A DNA stretch of 63,481 bases, the filler included, from Platydemus manokwari (taxonomy: Eukaryota), in NCBI GenBank assembly GCA_037951405.1. It is 5 parts of 5 records of this genome, joined end to end, with 100 filler letters (N's around TTAATTAATTAA, not from the genome) between each part and the next. Parts side by side here need not be neighbours in the genome. Positions count along the whole stretch, not along the records: positions 18,797 to 29,091 come from JBBMOY011147549.1; 4 more parts are not named here. One strand, 5' to 3'. Made by a program: the position numbers and the translations under genes. Every line of letters begins with the position of its first letter. Position 1 is the stretch's first letter. Shown piece after piece: positions 3,001 through 56,483 of the stretch. Under the pieces are notes generated by a model. It had not been told where the DNA came from. It saw nothing but the letters and a program-made list of their open reading frames with translations, and searched no databases.

Positions 3001-3017
3001 ATATTAATCTTATTCAG

Positions 3018-3278
3018 GAACCAATTTTCAATCAGAATTTATTCCAATTAAAGGAATAACTACAGGATCAGTTAAAAATTTCATAACAATAACCTTGAGA
3101 GGCGATGCCATATTTAACACGACATTGGTTTATTCATTGAAGTGTGAACAAAATTATTACGGGCCCAATTGTCAACAATACTGTAAACCCATGGATAAGA
3201 AATCTGGACATTACAATTGTACAGAAACCGGACAACGAATCTGCTTGGATGGCTGGAAAGGAATATTTTGTTCCGAAG
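3018..3278 (+). CDS. Delta/Serrate-family Notch ligand, exon encoding end of N-terminal region plus DSL domain
   Basis: Acceptor ttattcAG at 3016-17, donor GTaaat at 3279. Translation ...LKCEQNYYGPNCQQYCKPMDKKSGHYNCTETGQRICLDGWKGIFCSE fits the DSL consensus C-xx-xYYGxxC-xxxC-xPxDxxxGHYxC-xxxG-xxxC-xxGWxGxxC. Confidence 0.93.
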
Positions 3279-3517
3279 GTAAATCATTTCAAATATTAAT
3301 ATGAGCAATACAATTAATGATATCAATGAAAATTTCGCCATTAAATTTCTCATTTTATTAATAGACTCTCTGATTGAAATTGTTAAATATTTCGATCATT
3401 CTATGAATTTAATGCAAATTTCTTTACCGTAATGATAAATTTGTTATCGACATAAATGGTGAAATATAATTGATTCAGAAAATAATGATCGATGAATAAC
3501 AATTTCATTTTTTTCAG

Positions 3518-7081: not shown

Positions 7082-8461
7082 TTAATTGCTTACATATTTT
7101 TGAAAATCTTCTTTGTTCGGATAATTCTTACTGTGTATGTCGTATTGCTGATAAACCACTCTGAAGTCTTCATCTGTGACAGATCTTTTGTCCACGGGGT
7201 ATGCAACATTAGGACTGTTGTAGGCAGTAATATTATTAGAGCAGTAAGGCGTTTCAGCCTGAGTAGTGTAAATTTGAGGCTGATTGTTGGAAACAGAATT
7301 CACGTTCGGCGTGATTACGTTTGATTTCTTATTCGTATCACATTCAATAGATTCCATCACTTTATTAGGAAGAGTATTGGAAATTGAATTATCTATTGAA
7401 GGCGGTTGTGCATTTACCGTTGTGGATGTTTGTGGTGGTAAATTAGCACTTGCAGAAACCGGTGTTTCCGGATGCATGCCGCGTTGCATTAATGCAACTC
7501 TTCGTCGAAGCATTTGGGCCTGTTGCATTCTCTGTTGACTTCCTTGTTGTTTCCAATTAAAACGTAAAGCTAAACAATTGGGAACTTGACATTTTGGATC
7601 GGAACAAAATTTGGCATGTACAAAACAAATACGTAAAAATAACTGACACATTTTGCAGGTACTTTTCTGCATGTTACAGCATTGTAAATGTTTAATCATT
7701 CCTTTCATTTTAGCACAAAGATTTATTCGGCAATTGACATCTCGACATTGACAGGCATGTTGTAAACTCTTCGAATATCGAACCATTCGTGCACGAGTAG
7801 TATCTTGTAATTCCGATGTCGGTTGTGATAAGTTCTGTGGATTCGAAATGTTTGATTCTTCGTCAGGATCGACTTTAAACAATGGATGCGGATGAGATTC
7901 AGTGCTGTAGCATGTTGGACATAATTCAAAATCTTCACATTGCTTACAAGTATATCGGACTTCTATTTGTTTATTGCAAACATTACAAGCATAAAGAACG
8001 GAATTTTTCTGTTCCATATGCAATTCATAGCAGAAACAAAGGGTAGAAAATTTCGCTCGACGCAGAGAAGAAAATTCTAAATGCTTTTCTCTGGCTAAAC
8101 AAAGTAACTTATCTCTACCATCCATAAGGTCACTATGAAACAAAGCATCTGGATCATTGATTGGAGGTAAATTAGCGGCATCAATTTGGCTATGAAGTCG
8201 AATAACAAAAAAGTTCTCTTTGCGCTTTTCCATCAACTCCAGAACTTTACGAGATACATCATTAATAGTATCAGAACCATTACTTCTTTTCTTTTTGTTA
8301 TTTAACGAATTCATACGTTTTAATTTACGTTTTTTCGGTTTTTTATCCATTTTCGATAAATTATTTTTGGATATGACTTCGATTTGTGAATTTTCGCCTT
8401 CTTGAGAATTTGGATTTTCAGAATATGATTTCATTCGACGATTAGTTTCTTCATCGATTTC
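7082..8461 (-). CDS. CBP: CBP/p300 histone acetyltransferase, terminal exon (HAT C-terminus, ZZ, TAZ2, Q-rich tail)
   Basis: Acceptor ttcgtAG (plus-strand ct 8462-63); exon starts EIDEETNRR then runs into ORF 7082..8434. Motifs: KENFFVIRLH, DLMDGRDKLLCLAREKHLEFSSLRRAKFST, ZZ finger CNVC...CKQCEDFELCPTCY...HPH, TAZ2 LQHACQCRDVNC...HAKFCSDPKCQVPNC. Confidence 0.97.
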   Translation of the reverse strand, partial: EIDEETNRRMKSYSENPNSQEGENSQIEVISKNNLSKMDKKPKKRKLKRMNSLNNKKKRSNGSDTINDVSRKVLELMEKRKENFFVIRLHSQIDAANLPPINDPDALFHSDLMDGRDKLLCLAREKHLEFSSLRRAKFSTLCFCYELHMEQKNSVLYACNVCNKQIEVRYTCKQCEDFELCPTCYSTESHPHPLFKVDPDEESNISNPQNLSQPTSELQDTTRARMVRYSKSLQHACQCRDVNCRINLCAKMKGMIKHLQCCNMQKSTCKMCQLFLRICFVHAKFCSDPKCQVPNCLALRFNWKQQGSQQRMQQAQMLRRRVALMQRGMHPETPVSASANLPPQTSTTVNAQPPSIDNSISNTLPNKVMESIECDTNKKSNVITPNVNSVSNNQPQIYTTQAETPYCSNNITAYNSPNVAYPVDKRSVTDEDFRVVYQQYDIHSKNYPNKEDFQKYVSN

Positions 8462-10804
8462 CTACGAAATAAAAGTTGGAAATAAATGAAATTCACTGTT
8501 TTAAAAGAAAAGGAAATTAAAATCAACTTTATAATTTATGAAAATCAAGAAATTCAACAAACAATATCGAAACAGAGATTATGCCAACTTGTACAGAGAG
8601 ATACACGGAAAGACTCTTCTATTAGTTGTAAAATATACATTTAAGCTTTTAGTAAATGAAAAGCAAAAGAAAACCTAAGAACGAAGAGCGGATGTATACA
8701 TATTTTAATTGTCGAATTTAAGAAAGAAATGACATTCAACAAGTCTATAGATCTGAACATATTTATAAATGGGAAATTTCGCTAATTGTTTTTGTCAATG
8801 AAAATTATATAAAGATGGCATTTTTCATCATTTAATTATTTCGTACAATTTTCCAATGGATTTTTTGACTAAGGCTACTTTTTCAAATCATAACTGATCG
8901 TTCGTGATTTATCATTATATTCATTCAAAAATATTAATCTTAACCAATGATTTCCGTTTCCAAATTCATTGATATCTCATAAATATTCAGAAAAAGATTT
9001 AATTTTAGATAATAAATCAAATACATAACATTAATTAAGAAAAATTTCAATTCAATGATAATGCGTGCACAGTTCTAAACGTTAACAAATTAAATCAAAT
9101 GATATTATTAAATAACAAATTCACCCAGTTATACAATTGATTTCATTTTATATATATATATATTCAATTGAACCCAGGTTAATAACATATCCTTTAATTC
9201 TGGTAAATTTGTCATTTAAAACCAATTTGATTAATAAATGCTAATAAAAATTAATTATAAACTGAATACCATTCAGTAATTTGACATTACAACTTCATTG
9301 GCGTCCAGTGATGGTCATTAAACACAATGAGTTGACCATGCTTAACCATTAAAGTATTTTAGATAAATATGAGTGCATTTTGTACCCAGTTATACACAAA
9401 TCAAACTAAAATTTTAATAGTTCTTTGTAAAATTCAAGCAAAATTACTGCAAATTACGGAATATATTTATTCGTTCAAATAATCCTATCAAACTTAACGT
9501 GATTTATTAAAGTGATATTATTGTAGTGAATAGAAAAAATGAAGTTTCAAAAATTTTCAGCAATATTAAGCGAGGTGAATCTATTTTAAATATTCCCGTT
9601 TGATATGAATGCCGCTGTTTATTTATATATTAAAGGCATTTAAATAAAAGGGAAAACTTAAAACGGAATCGATAATAAGATATTAATGCACAATTTGCGC
9701 GTGAAGCGAATGGATTAGAAAAAACATATATTCCTCAAATCAAGTATGTGACATTTAAACTAATTATATAAAATGGAAGTAAATACTTTTCCACTGAAAA
9801 TGAATAAAAATCATGACCCAACATTGACTTATGAAACTATTAGCTTGATTAAAACATTATCTTAAACAGTATGCCATATATTCTAGGAATGTGAAGAACA
9901 TAAAATTAATCATCAAGTAAATTTTCCAGCGGAATAACCATTGTTTCATATGATTACAGAATATCTTTCGTTAGGGTTTCTTATTTGAAAAATATTGATT
10001 AAAGTTTTTATTAAAATAATTATTGATTCAATTTTGATTTATGCAATCAAAAGATGGTTATATTTGGAAAATGGAACTCTTTCTTAATGAAAGAACATGA
10101 GATAAGTAATCTATTTGAAAACAAAACAATACAATTTAAAATGAAATTCTTGAATAAATTTAATATCTCGACAAAAAGTAATATTTATTCCTTAATAACT
10201 TGATATCATTTGGATGTTTGTAATGGTTTTCATTTGCTGATTAAAAACAGATAAAAAATAAATTATTTCCATAGATATATCATTATAACAAAGTAGCTTT
10301 AACATAATAACAGTCATATAAATCACATGTAATTAATAGACGTTCATTCCGTCAATCAAATACGATTTACGTAGTATTTAACGTTTCACTAATATGCGCT
10401 ATGAGACACTAACGACTATTTAGAAAAATATCATGGGCCTGGATGATCAACATTTTATATTTTAAAACAAATTATTTAAGATTTTGCCTCTTGCAAATCA
10501 CCCGAGAAGAAATATTATAAAATGTAGAGAAATATATATACCATTATATAATTTATTCATAGAATTGTAAGGATCACCGATAAAATTATTCTCATATTTA
10601 TATATTATTTTATATAATGGCCATTCAGTTATATATAAAATAAATTGAAGACATTTTATGTTTTAAACTCTAAATTAGACGAAATTAATTAAATTTAATT
10701 TTTAAATTGATAATTGTGATAATACATGATAGAATATTTATAATTCAATTTAAAACCAACATCATATATAATATTTGTAAATGATTTATATATATTAAAA
10801 TTAC

Positions 10805-11684
10805 TTTGAAGATCTCTTCAAGTGCATTCGGCCAATAATCACCTTCAAAATAAGGAAGCTCAGTAGGTGAAAGCATACTCGAATGTAAAGCATCGCTAAA
10901 AATATCTTTATAATCTATAACAACGTTCTCTTTCATAGCTTTGTCAAGCATTTTGATATACCACTCTTGTAGTCGTTTAGGTTTTGGAAGCTTTTGTTCT
11001 GGAGGATGCATGTGAAATATGTAGTCGTCACCTTCTCCAGGAGGACATGCCCATATATGAGCCATTGTAAAACCGAGCTTTTTTGCATATTCCAAATATC
11101 CGACTAGAAATTCATGATATACATCAGTCCGATATTTACGAGGCTTAAAGTAATGCACAGAATCAAGATATGCAAGATAAACACGACGAGAATTGGGATC
11201 TGGACAATCCGATCCATATTCTTGAACATGAAGTCCAAAAAAACAAACTTCTTGACCATCGATTTCTTGAAATGCAAATATTGCTTTTAGTCGATATTTA
11301 AAGGATTCTGGCATTTCACAAGTTTCACAATAATGACTTTTCATTCCGGGTTTGACCTCAACAACTTTATCACTACTAGAAAGTACTCGAACAATAACTT
11401 CATTAATAGTGGGATCAATTGCTTTCAAAAAATTATTGACTCTATTTTCAATGTATCTACTCAATTCGCAATGTGGTAAACCCTTTGATTTATAAATGTT
11501 TTGTTTAATTTTGATAGTTTTTTCACGAATACAAGTAGTACAAACGAATCCTTCTCTCCATATTTCATCAACATGATTTGCACATACTTTATGCCATTTA
11601 CGATTACAAATCCGACAATAAACAAATTCTTCATTTTCCTTTACATTATTGCGACATTTTGACAGTAAAGACTTTTTCACTTTG
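10805..11684 (-). CDS. CBP: CBP/p300 exon: PHD finger and KAT11/HAT catalytic core
   Basis: Acceptor at 11685-86, donor GTaatt at 10804-03. Motifs CRICNRKWHKVCANH, FAFQEIDGQEVCFFGLHVQEYG, RRVYLAYLDSVHYF, HIWACPPGEGDDYIFH, PKPKRLQEWYIKMLDKA, LPYFEGDYWPN. Catalytic Trp and Tyr equivalents are retained. Confidence 0.98.
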
Positions 11685-12372
11685 CTATAAAAAAATAAAA
11701 ATTTACAAAAATTTCATTAAGGAATATTTTATAGAAATATTATAAATCAAAAATAATACTTAACTAAAGCTTTCTAATTCACATTTTAATGCTGTTCCTA
11801 CCTTGCTATTCTTAGTATAATTATTAATAAATTTCAGAGCCATTTTCAGTAGGGTCATAATAGTTAATAATATTATATAAATTAAGAAAGCTGTCGCAGA
11901 GTTGTGAATATATCAATCAATTAAGTTTACAATATTTTATCTTATATCTTCAAAATACAATTGCTAATTCCTATCAGTATCTAAACGATAAAAACCTTTG
12001 TATTTCTTCGGATAAACATCGTATCAATAAAGGATAGACATTTACCGTTATCGACTAGAGCAGAGATATAAACTGTGATAATTAATAAAGTAATAATTAA
12101 TAATTTGAAACCTCTTTTGCATTCATATTTTTATTTACAGACATAATAGTTTAGTCAATATTTTAAGTTTCGTCGGATTTTTGTCCAATTGTATTCTTAA
12201 GTAAGCCTTGACATCAAATAAACAAATCGGATAAGCAGGCCGACATTTATCAAAAGAAATGCGGTATGATCAATATCGTAAAACAAATTACACAAATATT
12301 TAACAAAAGAAAAGTACAAGTAGCTTATTAATAATATTCAATACTATCATTGAACATAAATGATCCACTTAC

Positions 12373-18890: not shown

Positions 18891-18938
18891 TAATTTTGAA
18901 TTTCTATTATTTGATTTTTAAATTATATCCATTTCCAG

Positions 18939-19670
18939 AAAAAGAAAGAAATTCTTAGTGACTTACAAACTATTATTAATTACGCAAAAAGCAACTTTAA
19001 AAATGCAATATTTAATAAAATGTTATTAAATTTTAAAAAGAAAATACTAGTTGGCGATTTCAATTCGCCAAAAAAACTCGGATTAATAGAAACCAAAAGT
19101 CGCGGACTAGTCACGGATTGGAAGCTTCTATTAGTCACGGATTGGAAGCTTCTACTAGTCACGGAATGGAAGTTTCAACTAGTCACGGAATGGAAGAAAC
19201 TCTTAATGGCGAAGAGGAATCCGAAATAATACTTTGTTTGAACGAAAAAGATAAATATCCAATTGCAAAATTTACATGAAAAAAAACTAATGGGAATTAA
19301 AACTGTACTAATGGAAAGTAAAGTCAAAAAGCCTACCCTATTCGAAAATTTTCAATCAAATAACATGAAGGAATGTATTATTTCACTGAAAAAACTTGAT
19401 GCCATGAAAACTATTGGGAATAAATCTCTCCATGTTTATTCTTTAACTGGAGAGATTATTTTACAAATGAAAATATTTGCGCCAAAAAATTACCTTAATA
19501 TTTTGAATATCAACGGCATAAATTACAAGCCAAAGTATATTAAATCCATTTTGAGGTTTACAAAGCTATGTCAAAAACATCATATATTACTAACTTTTTC
19601 AGTGCCTTTTAATTATATTCATAAAAATTTCAAAAATATTAAAGAGCTCTGTATTATAAATAAATGGTGA
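18939..19670 (+). pseudogene. Frameshifted orphan coding exon (ORFs 19020..19229 and 19263..19670 are parts of it)
   Basis: tttccAG acceptor at 18937-38 opens KKKEILSDLQTII...ILVGDFNSP. The repeat region reads more naturally in another frame (TSHGLEAS-like x4, then TLNGEEESEIILCL). The original frame resumes near 19263 to TGA 19670, followed by AATAAA at 19672-77. Confidence 0.5.
19106..19201 (+). repeat. 24-bp coding-type tandem repeat x4 (ACTAGTCACGGATTGGAAGCTTCT consensus)
   Basis: Four contiguous units at 19106, 19130, 19154 and 19178, plus a truncated unit at ~19095-19105. No spacers between units. Confidence 0.95.
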
Positions 19671-19812
19671 CAATAAAATTTGTGGATTATTTCTCTTGTT
19701 ATTAATTACAATTTTTCATAATAATAATAAGAAATTTCAAAAATTTTGAGGGCGAATGAAGAGCTTACATGGTTAAAATATTCAAATAAAGATTGAAAGT
19801 AAATAGCTAAAG

Positions 19813-20070
19813 ATGATAAGAAAAAGTTGTGTCATTTGTCATGACACAGCTAAAATAATTTTTGATACTTTCAAAACAGAGATCAACCAAGGAAATTTAA
19901 GATATAAAAGAAAAGATCTCATCAAAATATATAACAAAATAAAATTAGACCTCCTGAAGCAGATTGAGCTTTTGCTCGTTTCAGCTATGGTTGATATAGA
20001 TGGCGAAAATGAAATATTGCGTAATAATTCTTGTTATATTTGTGTAAATATGAAATTATGGAAATATTAA
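19813..20070 (+). CDS. Small intronless orphan protein (85 aa) with N- and C-terminal CxxC pairs, possibly zinc-binding
   Basis: ATG-initiated intact ORF; CVICH near the N-terminus and CYIC near the C-terminus bracket amphipathic helical sequence. Confidence 0.5.
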   Translation: MIRKSCVICHDTAKIIFDTFKTEINQGNLRYKRKDLIKIYNKIKLDLLKQIELLLVSAMVDIDGENEILRNNSCYICVNMKLWKY

Positions 20071-21099
20071 ATATAATAATAATAATTTTTATTTTCATGA
20101 GTGTTTGACCATTTTTGATTTTGTAATATTATCAAGTAGTCCACGACATTACTCATACTCATCCTTACAGATTAAGATATTATTTTATGAACTAGACAGT
20201 TTCGAATTTTGATGAAACTAACTGTCGCTTATCAAATGACAGTGAGCATCTGTTTGTGTGGGTATTGATTGAGTCTGTATTAGTCTCCCTGTAATAATGA
20301 AATTAATAACGAATATGATAATATATTATTTCTTCTTTCACCTGTACTATTATTTTGTGATGCCAATATTGATAAAATATTCATGCAATATTTTACGATC
20401 GGTAAGAGAAATTATTGAGATAGAAAATCTTCGAAAAAAAATTCAAAGCAAAAGGCCTTAGCAAATAATGTTGTGAGAAGAAAAAAATCCAAAAATGTTG
20501 ATTTGAAAGAGGGAAACTTATTTGTAGATTTAACTTAATAATTGAATGTTTCGTTATTTATGTATATTTTCCCTTGTGTGTTTTATTGAATTCGGTTTGC
20601 AAATTAAGTCCCATATGGACCTGAAATTGACCTGTTACAATAAACGTTGTTTGCTTCTATTTTATAATCCTAGATGACCGTTAATTAATAATAAATATTT
20701 AGTATTAATGACTATTCATTTTAAAATGCAATAAGAAAACTTATACAAATGACTTATATATCATCTTTTATATATCCAATAGCCTAATGATTAAATAATT
20801 TTGATGGAAAAACATCTAAGAATTTCTAAAGTAACTACTAATGCAGAATGGCACCCTGAAGAATTATATTATTAAGGTTTAATTTAGCGATTTTTAGCGT
20901 TTAAATGGCTTCTGCCTGAATATTGCTATTTATAAACAATATAAATGCTATTTATAAAGTTATGAATTTTATCTTTAATAAATTTAATATGAAAAATAAA
21001 AAAGCAAACGGCACCTATAAACAGTAACAGTAATTAAAATGTACGACTTTAAATATAAAATAAAATTACGGGGAAAATAATGAAATAAAATAAAATAAA

Positions 21100-22071
21100 A
21101 TGAATCGGCAAATCAAAGACTGAAGATGAGATGATGACCCATTAACGATATCTACTACAGAGGAGGAATCTCTCCTGGGAATCAACATTCACAACAACAG
21201 ACTATGGACGTAAGATAAACCTAGAAAGCAAGCTATCCCAATGGCTTCTCCAGAGCAGTCTTTAATCAAGGGAACTTCTCATAACATAGGCATTAGGAAA
21301 TATGAAAGGGTAGAAGACTTACCGAACAAACTTAAACCCCCAACAAAAAGCAACCGAGTATTCACCCTAATACATTCAATAACTCAAACACGTTTCTAGC
21401 TGGAGGAACTATCACAACATAACTTCATAGAAACCCACCGATTTATAGTGCATGCTGCAAACCCAACGATAACAATTAGGACATGGACTGATAACCACGA
21501 AGTGGAAGCCTTATCTTCTCTAAAGATAAGACTGAGAATGCGGCATGAGCAAAGAAGAGGGTTATAGAAGCGCTATAATTAGCGTATCAGACCTCCCGGC
21601 CATTTTTGCAATCGAGCAGAGAATGGTTGAAGGACGGGAGTGGACAAACGAGATACCCATAAACCCCCCCCCATAGTAACACAAAGAAAATGACCCTTTC
21701 AGGAATTGGACAGAAGCCTGGGTTTCTTAAGAAAAACCACTGTCAATGAAGTAAGAACAAGAAGCCATTGTCTTTATCGATGTCAAAACAGCAGAATACT
21801 TCCTGGGGGAGTTTCACCCAACATGGGGGGAATAGAGGACTACGTAGGAAATGATTTATTCAAAGAAAAGATCTGACAGCGAGCAGAAATCAAGAAATAT
21901 AATGTACACAGGGGAGGATTAGAGGAGTATGAAGTAAGAGGCTAGGTGGATGAAGAATGGGCCAAGGTGAGGTTCAGGGAAATCTGGCAAGGGAAAATCA
22001 TGGTCGGCCATCGACTGAAAGAGAAGTTGATGACAATTGGACTAAAGATAGAAGAAGTGCTATTAGTGTGA
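21100..22071 (+). pseudogene. Decayed intronless gene with C-terminal REX4/ISG20-like DEDDh 3'-5' exonuclease domain
   Basis: Purine-rich, GC-richer island with ATG at 21100 and TATAAA at 21016-21. Reading across stops and frameshifts gives AIVFIDVKTAE (21764) / GIEDYVGNDLFKEKI*QRAEIKKYNVHRGGLEEYEVRG*VDEEWAKVRFREIWQGKIMVGHRLKEKLMTIGL. This is colinear with the REX4-type pattern SIVNYxGxVxxDxxVKPxxxVxDYRTxxSGIxxxxxxxAxxFxxxxxxxxxxLxGxILVGHxLxxDLxxL. Confidence 0.65.
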
Positions 22072-22238
22072 TATTTGCTATTATGAATTGCTTTTAACAG
22101 TTATTTGAATTTTTTGATATCAACAATAAACAATTAGTGTAATTTTTGCTATTATAAATGGTTTTTATTTTTTTTTATGAAAGGGTCATTATGTAATCAT
22201 TTTATTATAAATGCAATGAATATTTTTTATGAGATTCG

Positions 22239-22915
22239 TGTATGCGGACGATGTGAGCAAATTCGGAGGATGCGTTAGCAAAGCAAATAAATGATAATAT
22301 TAATAAAACGATAACGAATAAAATATGGTCAGTAGGATAAACAGTTAAATAATAAAATTAAAAGTAAAGATAAATAAATAAGATTTAATAAAAAATTTGA
22401 AAGGTGTAAAATAAAGTTAAATTAGATCAATTAAAATAGGCACGAGAAAATAACTGATTAAATAAATCGTGAGAAAATAATCAGCCAAATTCGTAAAACT
22501 AAACCAAAATGAGAGAATTTATGAAAGAAAAATCATCAGGTATTCGTGTGAGAAAATAGACAGGATCAGACGCCTATAAATATCAGCGCTGGTAATAGGT
22601 AAGAGCCATAATAATAACGCACAGTAGAGACATCAATCGAACGATCATTATTCTGATTTGAGAAAAACTTTGACGGACGACGATAAAGAAGTTTCATTAA
22701 TTTCTGAGGTCCATCAGCCTTTCTTATTTATACAGAGCTATAAGTGGTCATAGATCATCAATTATTGGAAATTGCCTTATTGGACTATTAATCCTGGATT
22801 TATTTTTATTCGAGATTAAGCAGTAAGAATCTTTTAGATTACGCTTTCATTAATTTGTTAAACGCTCACTCGTAATAATTATCGAAATAATTAATAATTA
22901 ATTATAATGTTAACA
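22239..22915 (+). mobile_element. Putative LTR
   Basis: TGT...TAACA ends, A-rich U3-like region with repeated cgtgagaaaata-like motifs, and a CCTATAAATA TATA box at ~22572-81. No TSD found. Confidence 0.35.
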
Positions 22916-23858
22916 AGCATTAACATTGTGTAATTCAATAATTGGCTTTGTCGATAACTAACTTCTTCGGTTTTGTATAATAAAATATCTTCGTCCGTTT
23001 CACGGATTTTCCTGTTACTGGCTGAGGCGAGGTACGGGGCATTTTGATTAACATTTTTGGTGTTTTTCTTTCAATATTAATTGTTAATTTTCCTGTTTTC
23101 TAAATTAATAAAGATTTTGAAATTTTGCATTGTTATTTTGAATTTAAATATCACTACATACAGAGTTGTTATACCACGAGACTATATATTATCATATTAT
23201 AGTAATTTGTTAAAGGTTGTCACCGTAAAATATAATATCAAGCCTTTGAATCTTCATTCGTCGTTTTATCATAGATTATTAACACGTTTTTCATAACCGC
23301 CTCATTATTTTCAAGCCCAGAGTAACTCGTTTTCCTCTGTGCTCAATTATTAATTTAAAATCAAATTATTAAAGACAAGTTTTGTCACCAAATCACAATG
23401 AGTCTACAAGTCCATTATTAGTAATATTTTATTAACCTATTATATATAAATTTTGTTCTTCATTAAATTACACTAATAAATGTCAGTGAGTTCTCCTTTG
23501 AAATTCCTTCTATTATGAAGTTAATTTTATTGTTTGCATCGAAATGACTACTACTACTACTTTGTCAATATTTAATTTTTACACAAACGATAGCCGAATA
23601 AATATAATTACTTTTCCAAATTCATTTAAAAATCTTGAACGAATGTTGTTAACGCAAAGATCAATTAACTGTACAAAGTTAACCTTAAAAATACGCTCAA
23701 CCAATTATTTGGGTTGTAAGCTCTTGTTGAAATCATGAAGACCTTTGTACTATGAATTTGTGGATATTTATGAATTATTATTGTTGTCCATTTCCCAACA
23801 ACATCACGTGATAGCATGGTATATATTTTCTCATAGATGATCCTCAGTTGTTGATGAC

Positions 23859-24819
23859 TTAATTGATTCCTCGGTTTTTTTTACTGTTTTGGCAGGATCG
23901 ACGCAAGTTTTCCCGACTGCATGCGTGAGTGTTGCGCAAATGGCGTTTTAGTTGATTAATTAGGTCGAATCCAAGTCCACACACGTTGCAGAGATATGAT
24001 TTGTAATTTTGATGAACTCTATTGTGACGAGTTAAACAGAATTTCCTTTTGAATTGAAGGTCGCAAATTGTACACTTATATGCATGGTTGGTTTTTGATG
24101 TTGATGATCGAATATTGTCGAGATTACAAGATGTTTCGTCAACATTGATGACAGAGCTTGTTGGGGAAATTTTTTCAATCGATTCCACTGATACGTTACA
24201 CAATTTCTCGTCGCTTTCATCGGTTTCAATGGATTTATTCAATAAATCAATTTTCGGGACTTTACTGTTGTGAGATGTGAACTCGAATTGAGTATCAATT
24301 TTCAATTCACAAGCACACGTTGGAGTCAATGGTTTCATTTGATCCGACTCACTTTTAACATTTGTTGTATCATCGTCAATTATATGTCGAAATGTTTGCT
24401 GAGGTTTACGTGGCCTTCGTTTTTGAGTTGATGACTTTTCTGTTTCATCAATCAAAATAGAGTAATCTTTTACTTTGTCAATTTCCATTTCTTTTGTCGA
24501 TGAATTCCGGACCGTTTCCATACCTCCAGTGACTTCTTCAAGTGCCTTCAAGATGTCATTTTTTTGACTGATGTCCGTCAACTTGGAATAATCGGTATTG
24601 GTATTCGTTAAAACGATATCTTTTTTGATAAATGTTTCATTTAATTTAATACTTATATCAACATCATCATCAATATTGATACAAAGTAACCCGAATATAT
24701 CAATTGTTCGTTCATATTGAACGACTTGTTGACATGAAGATGAAATGACATTGGAAATAAGATTAGCAATCGTTTTTTGCAGTTTCACATTTACTCGACC
24801 TTTTTCGGATTTATTTGAT
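23859..24819 (-). CDS. C2H2 zinc-finger protein, exon 2 (two C2H2 fingers; 322 aa in total with exon 1)
   Basis: tttAG acceptor (plus ct 24820-21). Fingers YKCTICDLQFKRKFCLTRHNRVH and YLCNVCGLGFDLINQLKRHLRNTH; basic KRRPRKPQQ motif; stop at 23859-61. Confidence 0.9.
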
Positions 24820-24990
24820 CTAAATAATAAATTAAATCTGTAATTGATGGAAAACCATATAACAACCAATAATTAAAAACGAAATCGAAACATAGGCATT
24901 TAAGTTTATTCCATTTAAACATTAGTCATTGTATAATAACATTCATTATTTAAAAACAATCTCAATTATATAAAAGTAATCACAACTTAC

Positions 24991-24998
24991 TTATTCAT
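24991..24998 (-). CDS. C2H2 zinc-finger protein, coding part of exon 1 (ATG AAT AA)
   Basis: ATG at 24998-96 followed by a consensus GTAAGT donor; phase 2 matches exon 2 (8+961 = 969 nt = 323 codons including stop). Confidence 0.7.
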
Positions 24999-26489
24999 GC
25001 GTATTGATTGTTTGGATTGTTTAATAAATATGCTATTTTATTCAAAATGGATATATATTGTTACTCGATTGCTCATAAGAATGAAATCCCACGAAATTGT
25101 TTGTAGGATGGGTAAATTCAATTGAATAAAATCGATAGACTGACAATACTTTATTAGTCATTATAATTTAATCATTAATAATACAATCATGCTTGAGGAA
25201 TTAAGATGTAAAACAATGGAGTTTTATCGAAGCATTGCCGGTTTTCAAAATAATCATTGTTTACAAAGACAGGCGAATGGAAATGAAATAAACTGTTAAA
25301 ATCTATCTTACGAAGACCACGGCTTAAAATCCTATTTTGATTTCAATGAACCATAAGATAATTGTTATTTATTGGATATTACAAGCCGGGCTTTGACGAG
25401 TGTCAAAGATGTTTGGGACAACATTTTTGAATGAGTGATATTTGTCGAGTATGGTTGGAATTATTATTCCATACACCGTAAGTCGATTATTAAAAATGTT
25501 AACAAATTCTTCGCAATATATATAAAAAAATTAAATATATATATAAAATTAAATTTTACCTATTTTCCTCGAAATTTTTTATTGCTGAAAATTATTTTTA
25601 ATTCTGTTGTTGAATTTATTTTAATTTTAATAATTTATCGATGTGATCATTTTTATATTGAAAAAATATTTTTTTTTGGTTTTAACCAACTCTGTATGTG
25701 TTTTATTGAAAATTTTTAATTATTTTTTTCTCGAGTGCATGGTTGCAGAGACTGATTATTCTTACTACTCGACGAAATACATAGCTACACAAAGACAAAT
25801 GGAATAATAAAATTACAACAAACACACCAGAAATAAAAACTGAAAACACAATTCGATGCAGCAATAATATTGAAGAAAGAATTTGAAAAATTTATTTTAT
25901 TACAACAAAACTATAGAATATTGGGATAGGAAAAGTTCATCGTTTAACCCAAACAACAAACAAATAAACAAAAAACAACAACAAAAACAACAATAACAAT
26001 AACAAAAACAACAGAAAGACCTTGCTTGACAAATGAATGCAGAGAGATGCAAAGATTAGGCGTGACTGAGAATTTATTTATTCTCAAAAGACAGTTCATA
26101 ATGTTGTTTGTTTGCTTTGTTTTTACAAATCAATTGATATGATTTTGTATGTCCAATGTGGTATTTAAAAGTGTAAATGATAATTATCATCAACTTATGA
26201 GGAACCCAGGAATTACTTTCAAACCAATTAATATTTTCTTGAATCTTTGAAGAAAATGACCCAACAGAATTGATTTAGAAAATTATAATAACAATCAGAA
26301 ACACATATTTTGAAAGATATATTCATCTTTTGGTTAAAGTCTCCTATCGGATAATCTTATATATCAATCCTTTTACTCAATTCTATTAAATACAATCATA
26401 TGTTTTCATCAGTTCATAATCTAGAAAATTATGATTTCAGATGTATTTGAGCTTCATTGATGAATGAGATTTATCGAGTGAATAAATCT

Positions 26490-29717: not shown

Positions 29718-30990
29718 ATGGCTAGAAAAAGAACTGAAATTACAATTCATCAAAGGGTAAAAAAATTGTGCAATAAAATAGTCAAAGAAAATGTCGCTGA
29801 GTAAATTGTCTCAAGTTATCAGAAGATAATTAAACCTGGACCTAGGAATTTCTACGTTAACAGAAATTTTGAAAAATAAAGAGAAATGGGAAAATTGTGA
29901 AAGCTCAAACACTTACTCCAGACAATCTTTGAAAATTCATTCTCTGTTTGAGAATTCATTGATCGAATGGATATTTCGAATAGATGTGATAAATGGTTAC
30001 TTGACTGATGAAATTATCATTACAAAAGCAGAGGAATTTGGACAAAAACAAAATGTTGATGACCTGCAATTCAGCAAAAGTTGACTCTACACATTCAAAA
30101 ATCTATGTAATCTGAAATTGAAAGTTCTCGGTGGATGTTTCAGAACCATTGGAAAAAATGGTTGAAAAATTAGCAGGAATTGGCCTAGAAGTTATACTTA
30201 ATATTGATGAAATTGGACTTTTTTTCAAGCATTTCCTACAAGATCGATTTCATCAAGTGCAAGAAAAGGCATAAAATAATCTAAAGTTAGAATAACCATT
30301 GCTTTATGTTCAAATGCTATTGGATCACTTAAATTACACCCTTTGTTATTGGACATAGCAAGCAACCAAGATGTTTTAAAGGATTTATTGTTGTAAGGTA
30401 CTGTAATTACCACGGAAATTCGAAAGCATGGATGATCACCGATTTGTTTAATTGTTTTCTGCTGCATTTTGATAATGAACTGAGAAAATACAAGAAGAAA
30501 TTTTATGTACTTCTTGATAACGCTCCAAATAATAATGGCTTTAAGAAATGTTTTCAGAACAATAAAGTTATAATGCTTCCGAAGAACTCAACTGCTCATC
30601 TTCAACCCATGGATGCAGGTATAATAAAAAATTTAAAGCATTATTACAGTAAAAGTTAGTAGTTGATTACATTCAATGGCTTGATCAAAAAAAGCCTTTG
30701 TTGTTAATTTTAGGAAAGCCATATTGATACTCCATGAAGCTTGGGAAGATGTGAAAGAAGAAACCATAAAAAATTGTTTCAAAAAGGTTGCGATTATTCC
30801 AAGTATTCATGGATCTTATGCTGAAGAAAACTTGCCATCAGATCCCGTTGTTGAGACACACAAGAATGAGCTTGACCAAAACATGGTTGAAGATGATATG
30901 ATCCAAACAAACGAAGTCATTGATGATGATGAAATCATTTCACTGTTTCAAGAAGTAATGGTGGCGTCTTACAGATTTATTAAGATGTGA
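29718..30990 (+). mobile_element. Tigger/pogo (CENP-B-like) DNA transposon, inactivated transposase
   Basis: MARKRTEITIHQRV (psq-type HTH); FENSLIEWI...LTDEIIITKAEEF...LQFSKS (CENP-B HTH); NIDEIGLF; RITIALCSNAIGS; SKAWMITDLF...LLDNAP...LPKNSTAHLQPMDAGIIKNLKHYY (DDD core); EAWEDVKEETIKNCFKK. Several frameshifts and stops. Inverted TTAATCCGAAA/TTTCGGATTAA pair at ~29595-29661. Confidence 0.93.
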
Positions 30991-37061: not shown

Positions 37062-37745
37062 CAGTGGTTCATCCAGTACACTCCAGGGTTCCGCTATTTC
37101 TAAATGAGAACAACGAAGAAATAAATAACATGTTCAATTCAATTTCAAAAATCTATTTTATTTTTATTATTATTTTATTATAATTTTTATTATTTTATTA
37201 TTATTTATTGTTTAAATATTCTAAATTCAACATAATTAAACTCTCTAAATTTAAAATGTCACTTTGTCCAACCAGTATTAGGTTTGCTTTTATATATTTT
37301 GCTTAACGGTTGAAAAGGAATATCCTGCAATTACCCAGAAAGCGTTAGGACTTCATGTGCAATTTCATAACTCATATTTGTGTGCATTTGGATTTTCAGC
37401 TCTGACAACCATCAAACACAAGAATCGAGCACAATTGCTGTCTGTAGAAGATGAACTTCATGTGTGTGTCTGTCAAAAACACAACCTAATCTTAAAGAGT
37501 TGTGCAAGAAACACTAGGCTCAAATTTCCCACTGTGTTTTTGATCAGAATAAATTCAGTCTATTCAAACATGTATAATTTTGTTTTCATTTCATCAACCA
37601 ACATGTACAATACTCCGGACATAAATAATTTTATTTTATTTTTAAAAATAAATGCTGTTGTCCGCATAAAACAATTAAATTATTGCATAAAGATTCCTAG
37701 AGCTAGAGGAATCTTTCCTTGAGGTTCCTCTGAAGTTAAAAGGTA
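37062..37745 (+). mobile_element. Non-autonomous hAT (Buster/ZBED5-like) element carrying the dimerisation-domain remnant
   Basis: Starts CAGTGGTTC. KEYPAITQKALGLHVQFHNSYLCAFGFSALTTIKHKNRAQLLSVEDELHVCV matches the hATC consensus YLCExGFSxLxxIKxKxRxxL. Homologous to the copy at 52050-52390. Confidence 0.85.
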
Positions 37746-53109: not shown

Positions 53110-55448
53110 CCGACATCTTGGTCTTCAATACCAGGTGTTGAAGCCCCCATCAGAACTAGTGCCTTTAGGATAAAGCGATTAATTTGTATTCAATTAATTA
53201 ATATATTACAAAACCAACACCATAATAACACCATAACATCATAGCCCATTCAATATAAATATGGATTAATATTAGAACGAATCTGATTGATTAATGGCAC
53301 GTGTGCTTTCGAATTTGTGTTCATTGACCCTTTTTAGGGTTCATTCCTTGGTTCTTGTGAGCCTTTCGATTGATTTGTGATCTATCCAACACTACATACA
53401 TGTGTTTCTCTTAGTTCAAGTCTTATATACATCAATTATATATTATCACCAATTTCTATTTAACGTATCGTAGTAATTATTAATGTTTTTATCATTAACT
53501 CGTATTCTTTTCAATGAAAAAAAATCTCCACCCGGTGATTGCTTTGTTTAGGTTATTAACATATATCCTCAATTCGATTGTCAATGAGTATAGATATTTT
53601 GATCTTTAATTCACAAAGTAGATATAGCTGTAAGATATTTAATTTTAATTTTAAACATTCATAAAAACAGTCTTAAGCCAAACGCATAGTGAAAAATTAT
53701 GTTCAAGCTCTAGAAAATAGGGTTTTCTAAAATAACAATATAAAACTATGATAAAAAATTAATTATCATATAATTAAAATTATAATATCGCAAATAATCC
53801 TGAATTGCATATACAATTTTGAAGCAATATTGTTCGGTTCCAATAAAGTAGTTGGAATGAAAATAATGCGATAACAATATATTGTTTTTTAACTGTTTTT
53901 TGGTGGGATAAATATCTGAAAATTCACCATTGATAATATATAAGCCAAAGTATTTTAATACAGTCTCGTATATATCTGTGTGCGTGTACTTGTACGTGAT
54001 CTATAACCAGAGTTCTCATTCATTAGAAAAATTGTTTTGATCAGCAATATTGATCAGAATCACAATGACAGCAAAACAAGAACTTTGTCATAAAAATTAA
54101 ACACATCATAATGCTAGATTTATTTGTATGTTGTTCCAAGGATATAAATATTGTGCTTCATCGAAAAATAAAATCGCATAAATTTAATAAGATTAAATAA
54201 ATAAAATATTATCATAATAATTATTTTGTAATATTTTTATTGTAATTATTAAAAGAAAAATTGGTTATAATTAAGATAAAGTTTAAAAAAGGTTTTGTTT
54301 GATATTGTTTGAACAATCATTTTCCTTGTTTTTATTTTACTAACGGATTTTAAAGCATTTTTTGAGTGTACAACTTTAGTTTAAAGTACTTCTTCAAGTC
54401 AAACCGACATATAAAGTTCATATGTATTAATTATAGTTTCGATTAATATATATTTTTAAAAAATATAAACAAAATTACTATAGCTAATATTAAAATTACA
54501 ACAATGCTTCAAAAAAAATACAAAAATAACCACAATATTATTTAAGGTCTATTAGATCTTAATATATTTGTAATAACTCGAATAAAAAATTAAATAGTAA
54601 ATAATCTTTCGCGGTAATCCTTTAGTACAATGGAATCAAGCTATAAAACGACTTGATTTTATGAACATAATCTAATGATTTGTCTTTTATTTACTGGTTT
54701 TAATTTAAAATATTAGCTTGTTCGAGACGATTCGATCACTTAAGAATATAATCATTAATTTAAGATTCCTTTAAGTAAACTCGAATTCATAACAAATCAA
54801 AAAACGTCATTGTTGCCATGTGAATTAGAAATAATCAACGTCATCTAATTTTAAAAGCAACCAATTTATGAATGGACCTAAATGAAACAATATACGTTTC
54901 CAAATTTCGTAGATGGTTAAGAAATATATATATCGATTAAAACTTGAAATACGAAGCAAGCAAATCTATTAACTAAACAATTTTAATCTACATATTTGAA
55001 TACTAAAATTTAGAAATAAAACTGTTCGTGTTGATTAGCCTAATTATTTAAGAACTTGATTTCAGTTAAATCGAATATTGAAAGCTGAATTGAATATTAA
55101 ATGTAATGAATTTAATATAAAATCAAAAGTAATTAGCATATTTAGTTTACAATTTTGAGTTAATGTTACAAATTTGGTAATAATTTAATAAACCTAACCG
55201 TTGTTTCTGATTTTTACTTGCTATCCCATTATTGTTTTATGGGCTTATTGTGTTCCTGCAACATAAAACTAATATTGAATTAATCGTTTTGGGTAATCGG
55301 CCGAATACGATGAAAACCGATTACATCATGCTCAATATAAACAGAGTAAACTAATGAGAAAATTCTAATGTAAATATAAATTTGTTGCCCATATGTTTAC
55401 AATGTATAAGCGTTTGTATAAAAACACACAAACCTATCAAGTGATTTG

Positions 55449-55498: not shown

Positions 55499-55577
55499 TA
55501 CTTTCTAAAAATAGAATTGGTCATTGAAGATAAAGTAATCTTTTTTGTAAATTTATTCACATTTTAATTCTCGAAAA

Positions 55578-56483
55578 ATGTCAGATTTTGCAACAGAAAT
55601 ACTATTTTGCCAGTCCAATTCATATTATTACCCAACTCTTAGTCAGTTTTTCAAAAAATCAACAATGACATCCACATACTCACCAATTTCCACTTGCGAC
55701 TCAGGTATCGAATTGTGGAATCTTTCGAAAACCATATCACCAGTTGACAGTGTTGCGTCATCAAATGGCTCGGATTACAGATGGGGTCCAAATATGAAAT
55801 ATACGACTGAGAAAAGTAGTGATTCAGAAACCAATACAGAATCCGAATTCAAATATTATAAACCTAAAAGAGCGAGTTCATTGAAATCCAATAGAACTCC
55901 TCCCGGAACTCCAAAATCAAAGGCAGTGCGTTTTGCTGATGCTTTTGGACTCGATTTAGCAGATATCAGACATGTTTTCAATCTTGATTTACCTCCAAAA
56001 ATACCAGCCTCAGCTGTTCAAGACTTGGTTCTCGATAGTGACTCGGATTCTACTATTAATGACATACATTTTATGCACTACAACGCAAATTTTGAACAAC
56101 CTGGAGCTGCTAGCGATTTCTTAAGGCGAGTACGAATGCACAATGTATCATTAGAAAATGCATTTTTCGAAAACAATTGTCTCTCTGGCACAATTCGTGT
56201 GATGAATGTGACATTTGAAAAGAAAGTCACCGTTAGAATCACATTCAATGATTGGAAATCTTTTGTCGATTGTACAGCACATTATGTACTGGATTCGAAT
56301 GATGGTGTTACCGATCGATTTTCTTTTTCATTTCTGCTGCCAGGAGAATGCCAAAATACTGGTCAGAGAATTCAATTCGCTGTTTCATTTGAGAGTTCCA
56401 ATTCAATGACATACTGGGACAACAATTTTGGACAAAATTATATTTATACTTATTCCAATGATTCCAATATCTTCAGCGATTGA
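55578..56483 (+). CDS. PPP1R3: Protein phosphatase 1 regulatory (glycogen-targeting) subunit 3 family, 301 aa, intronless
   Basis: RVxF motif KAVRFADAFGLDL; CBM21 domain NFEQPG...VSLEN...GTIRVMNVTFEKKVTVRITFNDW...TDRFSF...IQFAVSF...YWDNNFGQNY. Confidence 0.96.
   Translation: MSDFATEILFCQSNSYYYPTLSQFFKKSTMTSTYSPISTCDSGIELWNLSKTISPVDSVASSNGSDYRWGPNMKYTTEKSSDSETNTESEFKYYKPKRASSLKSNRTPPGTPKSKAVRFADAFGLDLADIRHVFNLDLPPKIPASAVQDLVLDSDSDSTINDIHFMHYNANFEQPGAASDFLRRVRMHNVSLENAFFENNCLSGTIRVMNVTFEKKVTVRITFNDWKSFVDCTAHYVLDSNDGVTDRFSFSFLLPGECQNTGQRIQFAVSFESSNSMTYWDNNFGQNYIYTYSNDSNIFSD

Follow-up and report, generated by a model that had tools for sequence, protein, structure and literature searches.

The segment at 20898–23370 of the window, the window being the whole 63,481-nucleotide stretch of Platydemus manokwari DNA that was analysed, is what remains, after truncation and an internal deletion, of a Ty3/Gypsy LTR retroelement that carries env and has its genes in a Burro-like order. 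The element is multi-copy, and the locus is probably a dead piece of its 3'-most accessory gene, which encoded an ISG20L2-like fold without most of its catalytic residues and whose product likely bound RNA without cutting it. High confidence attaches to the joint set of observations on which this reading is built, namely the element context, the copy number, the domain homology, Lys/Arg at the ExoI Glu and ExoII Asp positions, loss of the ExoIII His, purifying selection on both domains, and catalytically complete sister lineages. The window copy itself is a dead remnant with no likely function.

Composition and coding state of the window copy

The initial annotation, made from the sequence alone, had pointed to a purine-rich island of about 1 kb with more GC than its flanks, and the composition counts agree: positions 21100–22071 are 60.4% purine and, at 41.9% GC, exceed the 1-kb flanks (25.5% and 28.0% GC), forming the most GC-rich kilobase of the window (37.7% in the richest 972-bp stretch elsewhere; 34–36% in three host coding exons). 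The TATAAA at 21016, the ATG at 21100 and both peptides quoted in that annotation were all located in the sequence, and the stops and frameshifts said to break the ORF came to nine and three, respectively, when the copy was read against open relatives (frameshifts near 21255, 21560 and 21805, the last two placed by eye), with ExoIII deleted.

A role of the TATAAA as a conserved promoter is not supported: it is present in only 4 of 17 distinct other copies, and the + strand of the window holds 131 such motifs. Nor is the ATG at 21100, listed by the annotation, supported as the start: it is lineage-restricted (6 of 18 copies), and the homologous start is the ATG at 21204 (12 of 13). The extent proposed for the gene, 21016–22071, located the island correctly and missed the limits, since the element remnant spans 20898–23370 and coding homology ends at 22061, the point at which a deletion has brought the gene up against LTR sequence (Table 1). 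Within 18900–25500, homology to other copies covers 20898–23370 and nothing else. The spacer at the left, truncated at its left end in the window, carries both the TATAAA and the ATG at 21100, and lies directly behind the transmembrane (TM) ORF in L018, L030 and L034.

Table 1. Features of the window, with positions counted along the whole stretch.
Feature	Position	Strand	Evidence or remark
Delta/Serrate-type ligand exon	3008–3304	+	
CBP/p300 host gene	7082–11713	-	
AT-rich element spacer, membrane-protein ORF to exonuclease-like ORF	20898–21203	+	About 19 loci match at 66–90%
Start codon homologous to that of other copies	21204–21206	+	ATG in 12/13 other aligned copies
Decayed N-terminal domain, ~160 codons, predicted double-stranded beta-helix, 2OG-dioxygenase-like, without conserved iron triad; frameshifts near 21255 and 21560	21204–21690	+	Model of open relative, fold match, column counts, translations
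Decayed DEDDh domain of ISG20L2/REX4-like type, reaching from ExoI to shortly beyond ExoII; frameshift near 21805	21760–22061	+	Translations, profile and PDB matches
ExoI Asp codon	21779	+	
Lys at ExoI Glu position	21785	+	
Lys at ExoII Asp position	22024	+	
Internal-deletion junction, ~1.2–1.6 kb lost (ExoIII region, acidic coiled-coil tail, 5' part of LTR)	22061–22062	+	Coding homology of ~40 loci stops here; distances in L023, L026 and L034 versus window
3' LTR interior (full LTR ~1.6 kb); ~85 bases of 3' end absent in window	22062–23370	+	61 matches; other copies continue beyond 23370
C2H2 zinc finger host gene	23859–24872	-	Stop 490 bases from element remnant
Decayed Tc5/pogo-type DDE transposase	29830–30990		Pfam HTH_Tnp_Tc5, DDE_1
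CBM21 glycogen-targeting subunit gene	55551–56483	+	

Elsewhere in the window, the best match of the CBP exon was a monogenean flatworm protein at 70%, followed by matches of 65% or less (candidates being proteins of 162–518 aa). Positions 18915–19670, beside an assembly gap, hold overlapping short ORFs with no Pfam match and a 24-nt tandem repeat (5 copies, 19082–19225). Other interspersed repeats common to the fetched loci lie at 47312–47625, 48370–48891, 53110–53391 and 37282–37722, the last resembling by eye the end of a hAT transposase, with no Pfam match.

Repeat family and host element

Searching the genome with the window DNA returned 58 matches at 66–93% besides its own copy (55 candidates, 40 scored), and searching with the protein of an open copy returned 109 matches, down to ~28% identity (809 candidates, 104 scored); related places in the genome number more than 100. 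The repeat that follows 22061 is non-coding and gave 61 matches (417 candidates). It was identified as an LTR because it is ~1.6 kb long, begins with TGTT (5 loci) and occurs as solo copies flanked by 4-bp target duplications, which are present at L109 and L110 and absent at L112 (two of the three copies with both ends); its 3' end is TA, not CA. Other copies go on for ~85 bases beyond 23370; the window copy is therefore truncated on either side.

On contig C380000 (L049), Pfam matches to RVT_1, RT_RNaseH, rve and Integrase_p58_C, then the membrane-protein ORF and the exonuclease-like ORF, follow one another on one strand, which is the Ty3/Gypsy order of RT, RNase H and integrase with a GPY/F-type integrase tail; the LTR with short target-site duplication that also marks Ty3/Gypsy elements was found at L109 and L110. 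Upstream on C206672 are a viral fusion glycoprotein (PF24664, E 4.6e-14) and, by eye, a gag-like CCHC-knuckle frame with no Pfam match, and the PF24664 env lies upstream of pol in C206672, C1234431 and C1130329. The gene order is repeated in lineages of ~30% identity (L123, L128, L129, L130 and L120; env at E 1.8e-58 and 6.3e-27), giving an element layout of gag...env-RT-RNase H-integrase, membrane-protein ORF, exonuclease-like ORF and 1.6-kb LTR.

Among the 57 exonuclease-bearing loci of at least 4 kb, three of which are the window's own contig, 14 have a same-strand RT, RNase H, integrase or env on their upstream side and another 6 the TM ORF; the other 37 show no upstream element gene, a pattern that fits truncation and short contigs. 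The longest element-bearing contigs are 12–17 kb and decayed. The proposal that the gene is borne by a mobile element is borne out by gene order, LTR and target duplications, and inspection of the flanks of other copies, which the annotation had recommended, placed pol, env or a TM ORF upstream in 20 of the 57 loci.

Lying between pol and the exonuclease ORF, the membrane-protein ORF (L030:771–3080; L049:2404–3855) encodes ~600 aa with signal-like and TM segments, belongs to no Pfam family, and is a second surface protein besides env. At L030:4700–5450, on a contig that also bears a copy of the window's lineage, a fragment of a distant altered lineage follows that copy.

Exonuclease-like domain

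In its longest copies the protein has ~720 codons and consists of the N-terminal domain, the exonuclease-like domain and an acidic coiled-coil tail. Homology to REX4/ISG20-like DEDDh enzymes, as first claimed from the window, is weak on the window's own pieces and clear through open copies. The 100-aa 3' piece of the window had ISG20 and ISG20L2 as its top two rows against the PDB (E 0.36 and 0.91), and none of three window pieces matched RNase_T in Pfam. The PDB sequence search reached E 1.2e-4 with a single natural open copy, 1.9e-9 with a 15-copy profile and 5e-32 with a 70-row profile (ISG20L2), and open-copy sequences and profiles ranked ISG20L2 first, then ISG20.

A two-domain model of an open copy, modest in quality (pLDDT 60), matched the fold of ISG20, an antiviral nuclease in humans, with Z 14.6 (rmsd 3.4, 153 aligned) and, using Foldseek, that of ISG20L2 with E 2e-7; ISG20, PAN2 and SDN1 were the top matches of the exonuclease domain. 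Fold and profile scores together identify a DnaQ-like fold with REX4/ISG20 spacing. In the ESM Atlas, the whole protein retrieved RNase_T clusters only, all under 0.9, and the N-terminal domain had no usable feature match. Lack of an RNase_T HMM match had been named in advance as grounds for giving up the exonuclease assignment; formally this is the outcome in the window's lineage, in which none of 15 open copies matches PF00929, and it is outweighed by the profile and fold matches and by sister-lineage rows, which pass PF00929 at 42 and 33 bits (cut-off 24).

N-terminal domain

The annotation had also described an unrecognised N-terminal domain fused to the exonuclease, and this region, folded alone for an open relative with 70 rows, was modelled as a double-stranded beta-helix (pLDDT 85, pTM 0.82). 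Fold matches were prolyl-4-hydroxylase (Z 11.4, rmsd 3.1, 144 aligned), ALKBH7 (Z 10.4) and cupin (Z 9.8), with viral AlkB-like proteins and the N-terminal domain of vaccinia C16 (E 3.9e-4) also among them. With strands assigned by eye, the columns scored for an HxD/E...H iron triad contained one conserved His (64 of 70 rows) and were otherwise at 13 of 70 or fewer; as a single conserved His column accompanied by Arg and Glu does not make the triad, the domain is not predicted to be an oxygenase. Its most conserved residues, Pro-Asn-x-x-Lys, Arg54, His86 and Glu146 (52–69 of 70 rows), are common to intact and altered members. That the N-terminal domain is a double-stranded beta-helix without the iron triad and that the altered lineage has no nuclease activity are predictions which, taken jointly, are very probably correct.

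Family and phylogeny

An exhaustive profile search gave 398 cluster representatives at E ≤ 0.001, the weaker of which include cellular REX4/ISG20L2, and 88 at 1e-10; a word-indexed homolog search using one open copy as query returned none from 2433 candidates. None of the 20 top family clusters that were looked up has a real name; all derive from metagenome and Logan assemblies. Profiles A1 and A2 align with each other over 332 columns. Many external homologs are on 2–3-kb contigs. A metagenome context scan, using one sub-family pattern and covering 13 loci, all from two assemblies, found retroelement-like neighbours at two (L090, with a retro-type aspartyl protease and a TM ORF upstream, and L091, with a TM ORF), and no relative was confirmed among 36 stretches of viral contigs searched with one sub-family pattern.

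Sister lineages in the same genome (C1765673, C1985244, C1295973, C1371426 and others; L096–L107, L118–L127) have the full D-E-E-H-D set and pass PF00929, and a protein search from them gave 115 matches (799 candidates), the weakest of which run into the altered lineages. Several proteins (P0067, P0076 and P0094, of 778, 804 and 733 aa, and P0069, P0072, P0086 and P0087) carry four or two tandem ISG20-like domains, and in several of these proteins the motifs are altered. L093 (C11827), a 1-kb contig, encodes a DnaQ of bacterial type that probably comes from a symbiont or contaminant.

The phylogeny suggested by the annotation was built in two ways. A quick tree was made from 102 exonuclease domains: 29 cellular rows, including the host REX4, fell on one side of a branch (99), and 39 altered element rows formed one branch (92 SH-aLRT), the other 34 element rows all reading D-E-[D/E]-H-D. 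In a careful tree of 34 rows (14 of the 39 altered, 12 of the 34 intact, 8 of the 29 cellular), the 8 cellular and 26 element rows split with 100/100 support and, when rooted on the cellular enzymes, the altered rows nested within the intact ones (97/98). The host has a spliced REX4 gene of its own on C1105887, which falls with the REX4 of the fly, in keeping with the annotation's view that the island is not the host gene. A single origin of catalytic loss had support of 69/94 in the careful tree and 92 SH-aLRT in the quick one, with long branches. As judged from the rooted sequence tree, loss of catalytic residues is derived within the element family, which splits into likely active exonucleases and a derived, conserved pseudo-nuclease group.

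Active site and selection

The full catalytic set was found in 34 of 34 element-type rows outside one branch and in 0 of 39 inside it (73 rows in total). All 34 sister rows, which come from this genome and from metagenomes, have D-E-[D/E]-H-D, with ExoII Asp in 16 and Glu in 18, and all carry His, not the Tyr general base of DEDDy enzymes. The D-E-D-H-D set is absent from the window's lineage, and the ExoIII His from all 39 altered rows.

Across 38 close copies, with the window copy left out, 27 of 29 scored retain the ExoI Asp, whereas Lys/Arg has taken the ExoI Glu position in 28 of 28 and that of the ExoII Asp in 29 of 31. A basic residue at the latter two positions, read as Lys in the window by the annotation, is common to the close copies, and is a lineage-wide feature, not decay; the window's branch is therefore a pseudo-exonuclease, not an enzyme awaiting reconstruction. 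Collecting copies, as advised, did recover open ones, without the catalytic residues that were expected to return with them in the window's lineage. Over the wider altered group, Lys/Arg occupies the ExoI Glu position in 27 of 37 scored rows, and beyond the window's sub-lineage neither the ExoII Lys (16 of 39) nor the ExoI Asp (15 of 39) is retained as a rule.

Both domains are shown to have evolved under purifying selection. Median pairwise dN/dS, the pairs being mutually non-independent, was 0.11 for the N-terminal domain (384 pairs) and 0.09 for the exonuclease domain (332 pairs) with poorly aligned columns masked, and 0.10 and 0.09 when 11 long copies were compared without masking, with 36 of 45 and 45 of 55 pairs short of saturation. 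The window copy had dN/dS of 0.10–0.36 against six relatives, highest against the nearest, as expected from its later decay.

Relation to known systems

Burro and flatworm errantiviruses have env between gag and pol (PMC6431247, PMC13524379). As described there, the Burro/GYPSM1 giant Gypsy elements of planarians and the GAG-ENV-POL errantiviruses of Platyhelminthes resemble the present element in the Gypsy RT-RNase H-integrase, the RNA-virus-type env between gag and pol (here PF24664 upstream of pol), accessory ORFs, a decayed multi-copy state and a flatworm host; a weak BCL2-like stretch just before env (Bcl-2-related A1 at E 0.45, in one lineage) would be a further likeness to Burro. Burro has an internal region of ~25 kb and an ORF1 of ~4,900 aa; here the LTR is ~1.6 kb long and the longest element-bearing contigs are 12–17 kb. 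The element is called Burro-like from its apparent gene order, RT clade and size standing outside that comparison. TRAF/MATH ORFs near L002 and L028 were considered as Burro MATH domains and set aside, having no demonstrated membership in the element. The consulted text of neither paper mentions a 3' exonuclease ORF (the eLife main text is without the word 'nuclease' and its seven supplements without 'exonuclease', figures being outside this scope), and the portions consulted of PMC8532177, PMC3985635 and PMC13238120 hold nothing on the exonuclease ORF of the window's element.

Transposon-borne exonucleases as such are known. Bdelloid rotifer Juno/Vesta LTR elements and Terminons carry behind pol an ORF3 for a catalytically intact, RNase D-like DEDDy 3'-5' exonuclease (PMC5408684), similar in being a separate ORF behind pol and in the change of the third acidic residue to Glu (DEED; compare 18 of 34 intact rows here), and different in that the present gene is of REX4/ISG20 DEDDh type, is fused to a beta-barrel and has a conserved disarmed branch. 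KolobokD (PMC9587614) also bears a DEDDh accessory nuclease, but is a DNA transposon with a TREX/ERI1/Exuperantia-like, not ISG20-like, enzyme. Arenavirus NP and nidovirus ExoN (PMC7968707) are virus-borne DEDDh enzymes acting against innate sensing, and are independent captures with no sequence relationship established beyond the superfamily. The cellular DEDDh exoribonucleases ISG20L2, ISG20 and REX4 (PDB 7yw5, 1wlj) are the best sequence and fold matches and share the motif spacing, but form a separate clade, without the extra domains and without the catalytic replacements of the window's lineage. Exuperantia and Maelstrom are exonuclease folds turned to RNA binding; as pseudo-nucleases they are independent of the present gene, with no sequence relationship established beyond the superfamily (Exuperantia, PDB 5l80, is among the fold matches). 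The literature searched yielded no Gypsy element on which an ISG20-type DEDDh domain is joined to an oxygenase-like barrel and one conserved branch is disarmed; the primary Burro description, its supplements, Repbase and figures lay outside that search and may annotate the ORF.

Proposed function and alternative explanations

The ancestral element would have captured a REX4/ISG20-type RNA exonuclease once. By analogy with the arenavirus NP exonuclease and innate sensing, the captured enzyme likely trimmed or destroyed the element's own RNA intermediates, as intact lineages likely still do. On a later branch, the acidic metal ligands would have been replaced by basic residues, which would grip the phosphate backbone. 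With basic residues in place of metal ligands the pocket would suit an RNA backbone, hence shielding or competition is the likely mode of action: the altered protein would shield the 3' ends of element RNA or compete with host exonucleases and small-RNA surveillance, its expression from an internal promoter or a spliced message being assumed. It is the charge reversal alone that suggests RNA binding by the altered protein, and the lack of a fixed ExoII Lys or ExoI Asp in the wider altered group counts against an RNA clamp shared by all of it. Taken jointly, we infer single capture, RNA trimming by the ancestor and a later charge swap to a shielding or competing protein as a plausible course of events, held a little short of probable. 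A bolder version is tentative and on balance unlikely, in which flatworm retrovirus-like elements captured an ISG20/REX4 homologue and fused it to a dead oxygenase barrel, and one old branch was charge-reversed into an RNA-shielding anti-silencing protein.

The main rival shares the element and the dead active site with the RNA-binding reading, and has the protein act by protein contact, as a decoy or scaffold for host partners of REX4/ISG20-type enzymes or of silencing factors, through the beta-barrel and the acidic coiled coil. Poxvirus C16-family dead oxygenase folds bind host partners, and the C16 fold match speaks for this role, as does the fact that intact and altered members have the best-conserved residues of the N-terminal domain in common; the wide variation of active-site positions over the altered group favours a decoy somewhat. 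The near fixation of basic residues at metal-ligand positions in the window's lineage, and the predominance of Lys/Arg at the ExoI Glu position over the altered rows, suit a phosphate-binding pocket instead, and we consider action by contact rather unlikely.

It is improbable that the Lys lineage remains a nuclease whose active site has been switched in the way proposed for Maelstrom: the retained ExoI Asp and the selection on the exonuclease domain, as strong as that on the N-terminal domain, would agree with it, but three or more of the five catalytic positions differ, two of them now being basic, and no alternative conserved acidic/His set is apparent by eye in the alignment. An origin of the insertion in a non-retroviral virus, independent of the LTR sequence beside it, would accommodate the RNA-virus type of the env and the short contigs of many external homologs, yet the recurrence of pol and LTR gene order in several ~30%-identity lineages and the lack of a confirmed relative in the viral contigs searched with one sub-family pattern make it very unlikely. 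A processed copy of the host REX4 gene, for which the intronless state and REX4-like spacing might speak, is refuted by the tree, in which the spliced host gene sits apart with the cellular rows, and by an N-terminal domain, tail and LTR context absent from REX4, the window DNA reaching at best E 0.27 against 15 PF00929 loci, a set with the REX4 locus outside it.

Significance

The analysis names a previously unannotated family, represented by the clusters found in the profile search. With likely active and conserved disarmed lineages in one genome, it offers a natural pair for the question of how an enzyme becomes a pseudo-enzyme. The system bears on how giant planarian-type retroelements face host piRNA and dsRNA defences and, if the bolder version of its history is true, would be a retroelement counter-defence factor whose active and disarmed natural forms are paired in one genome.
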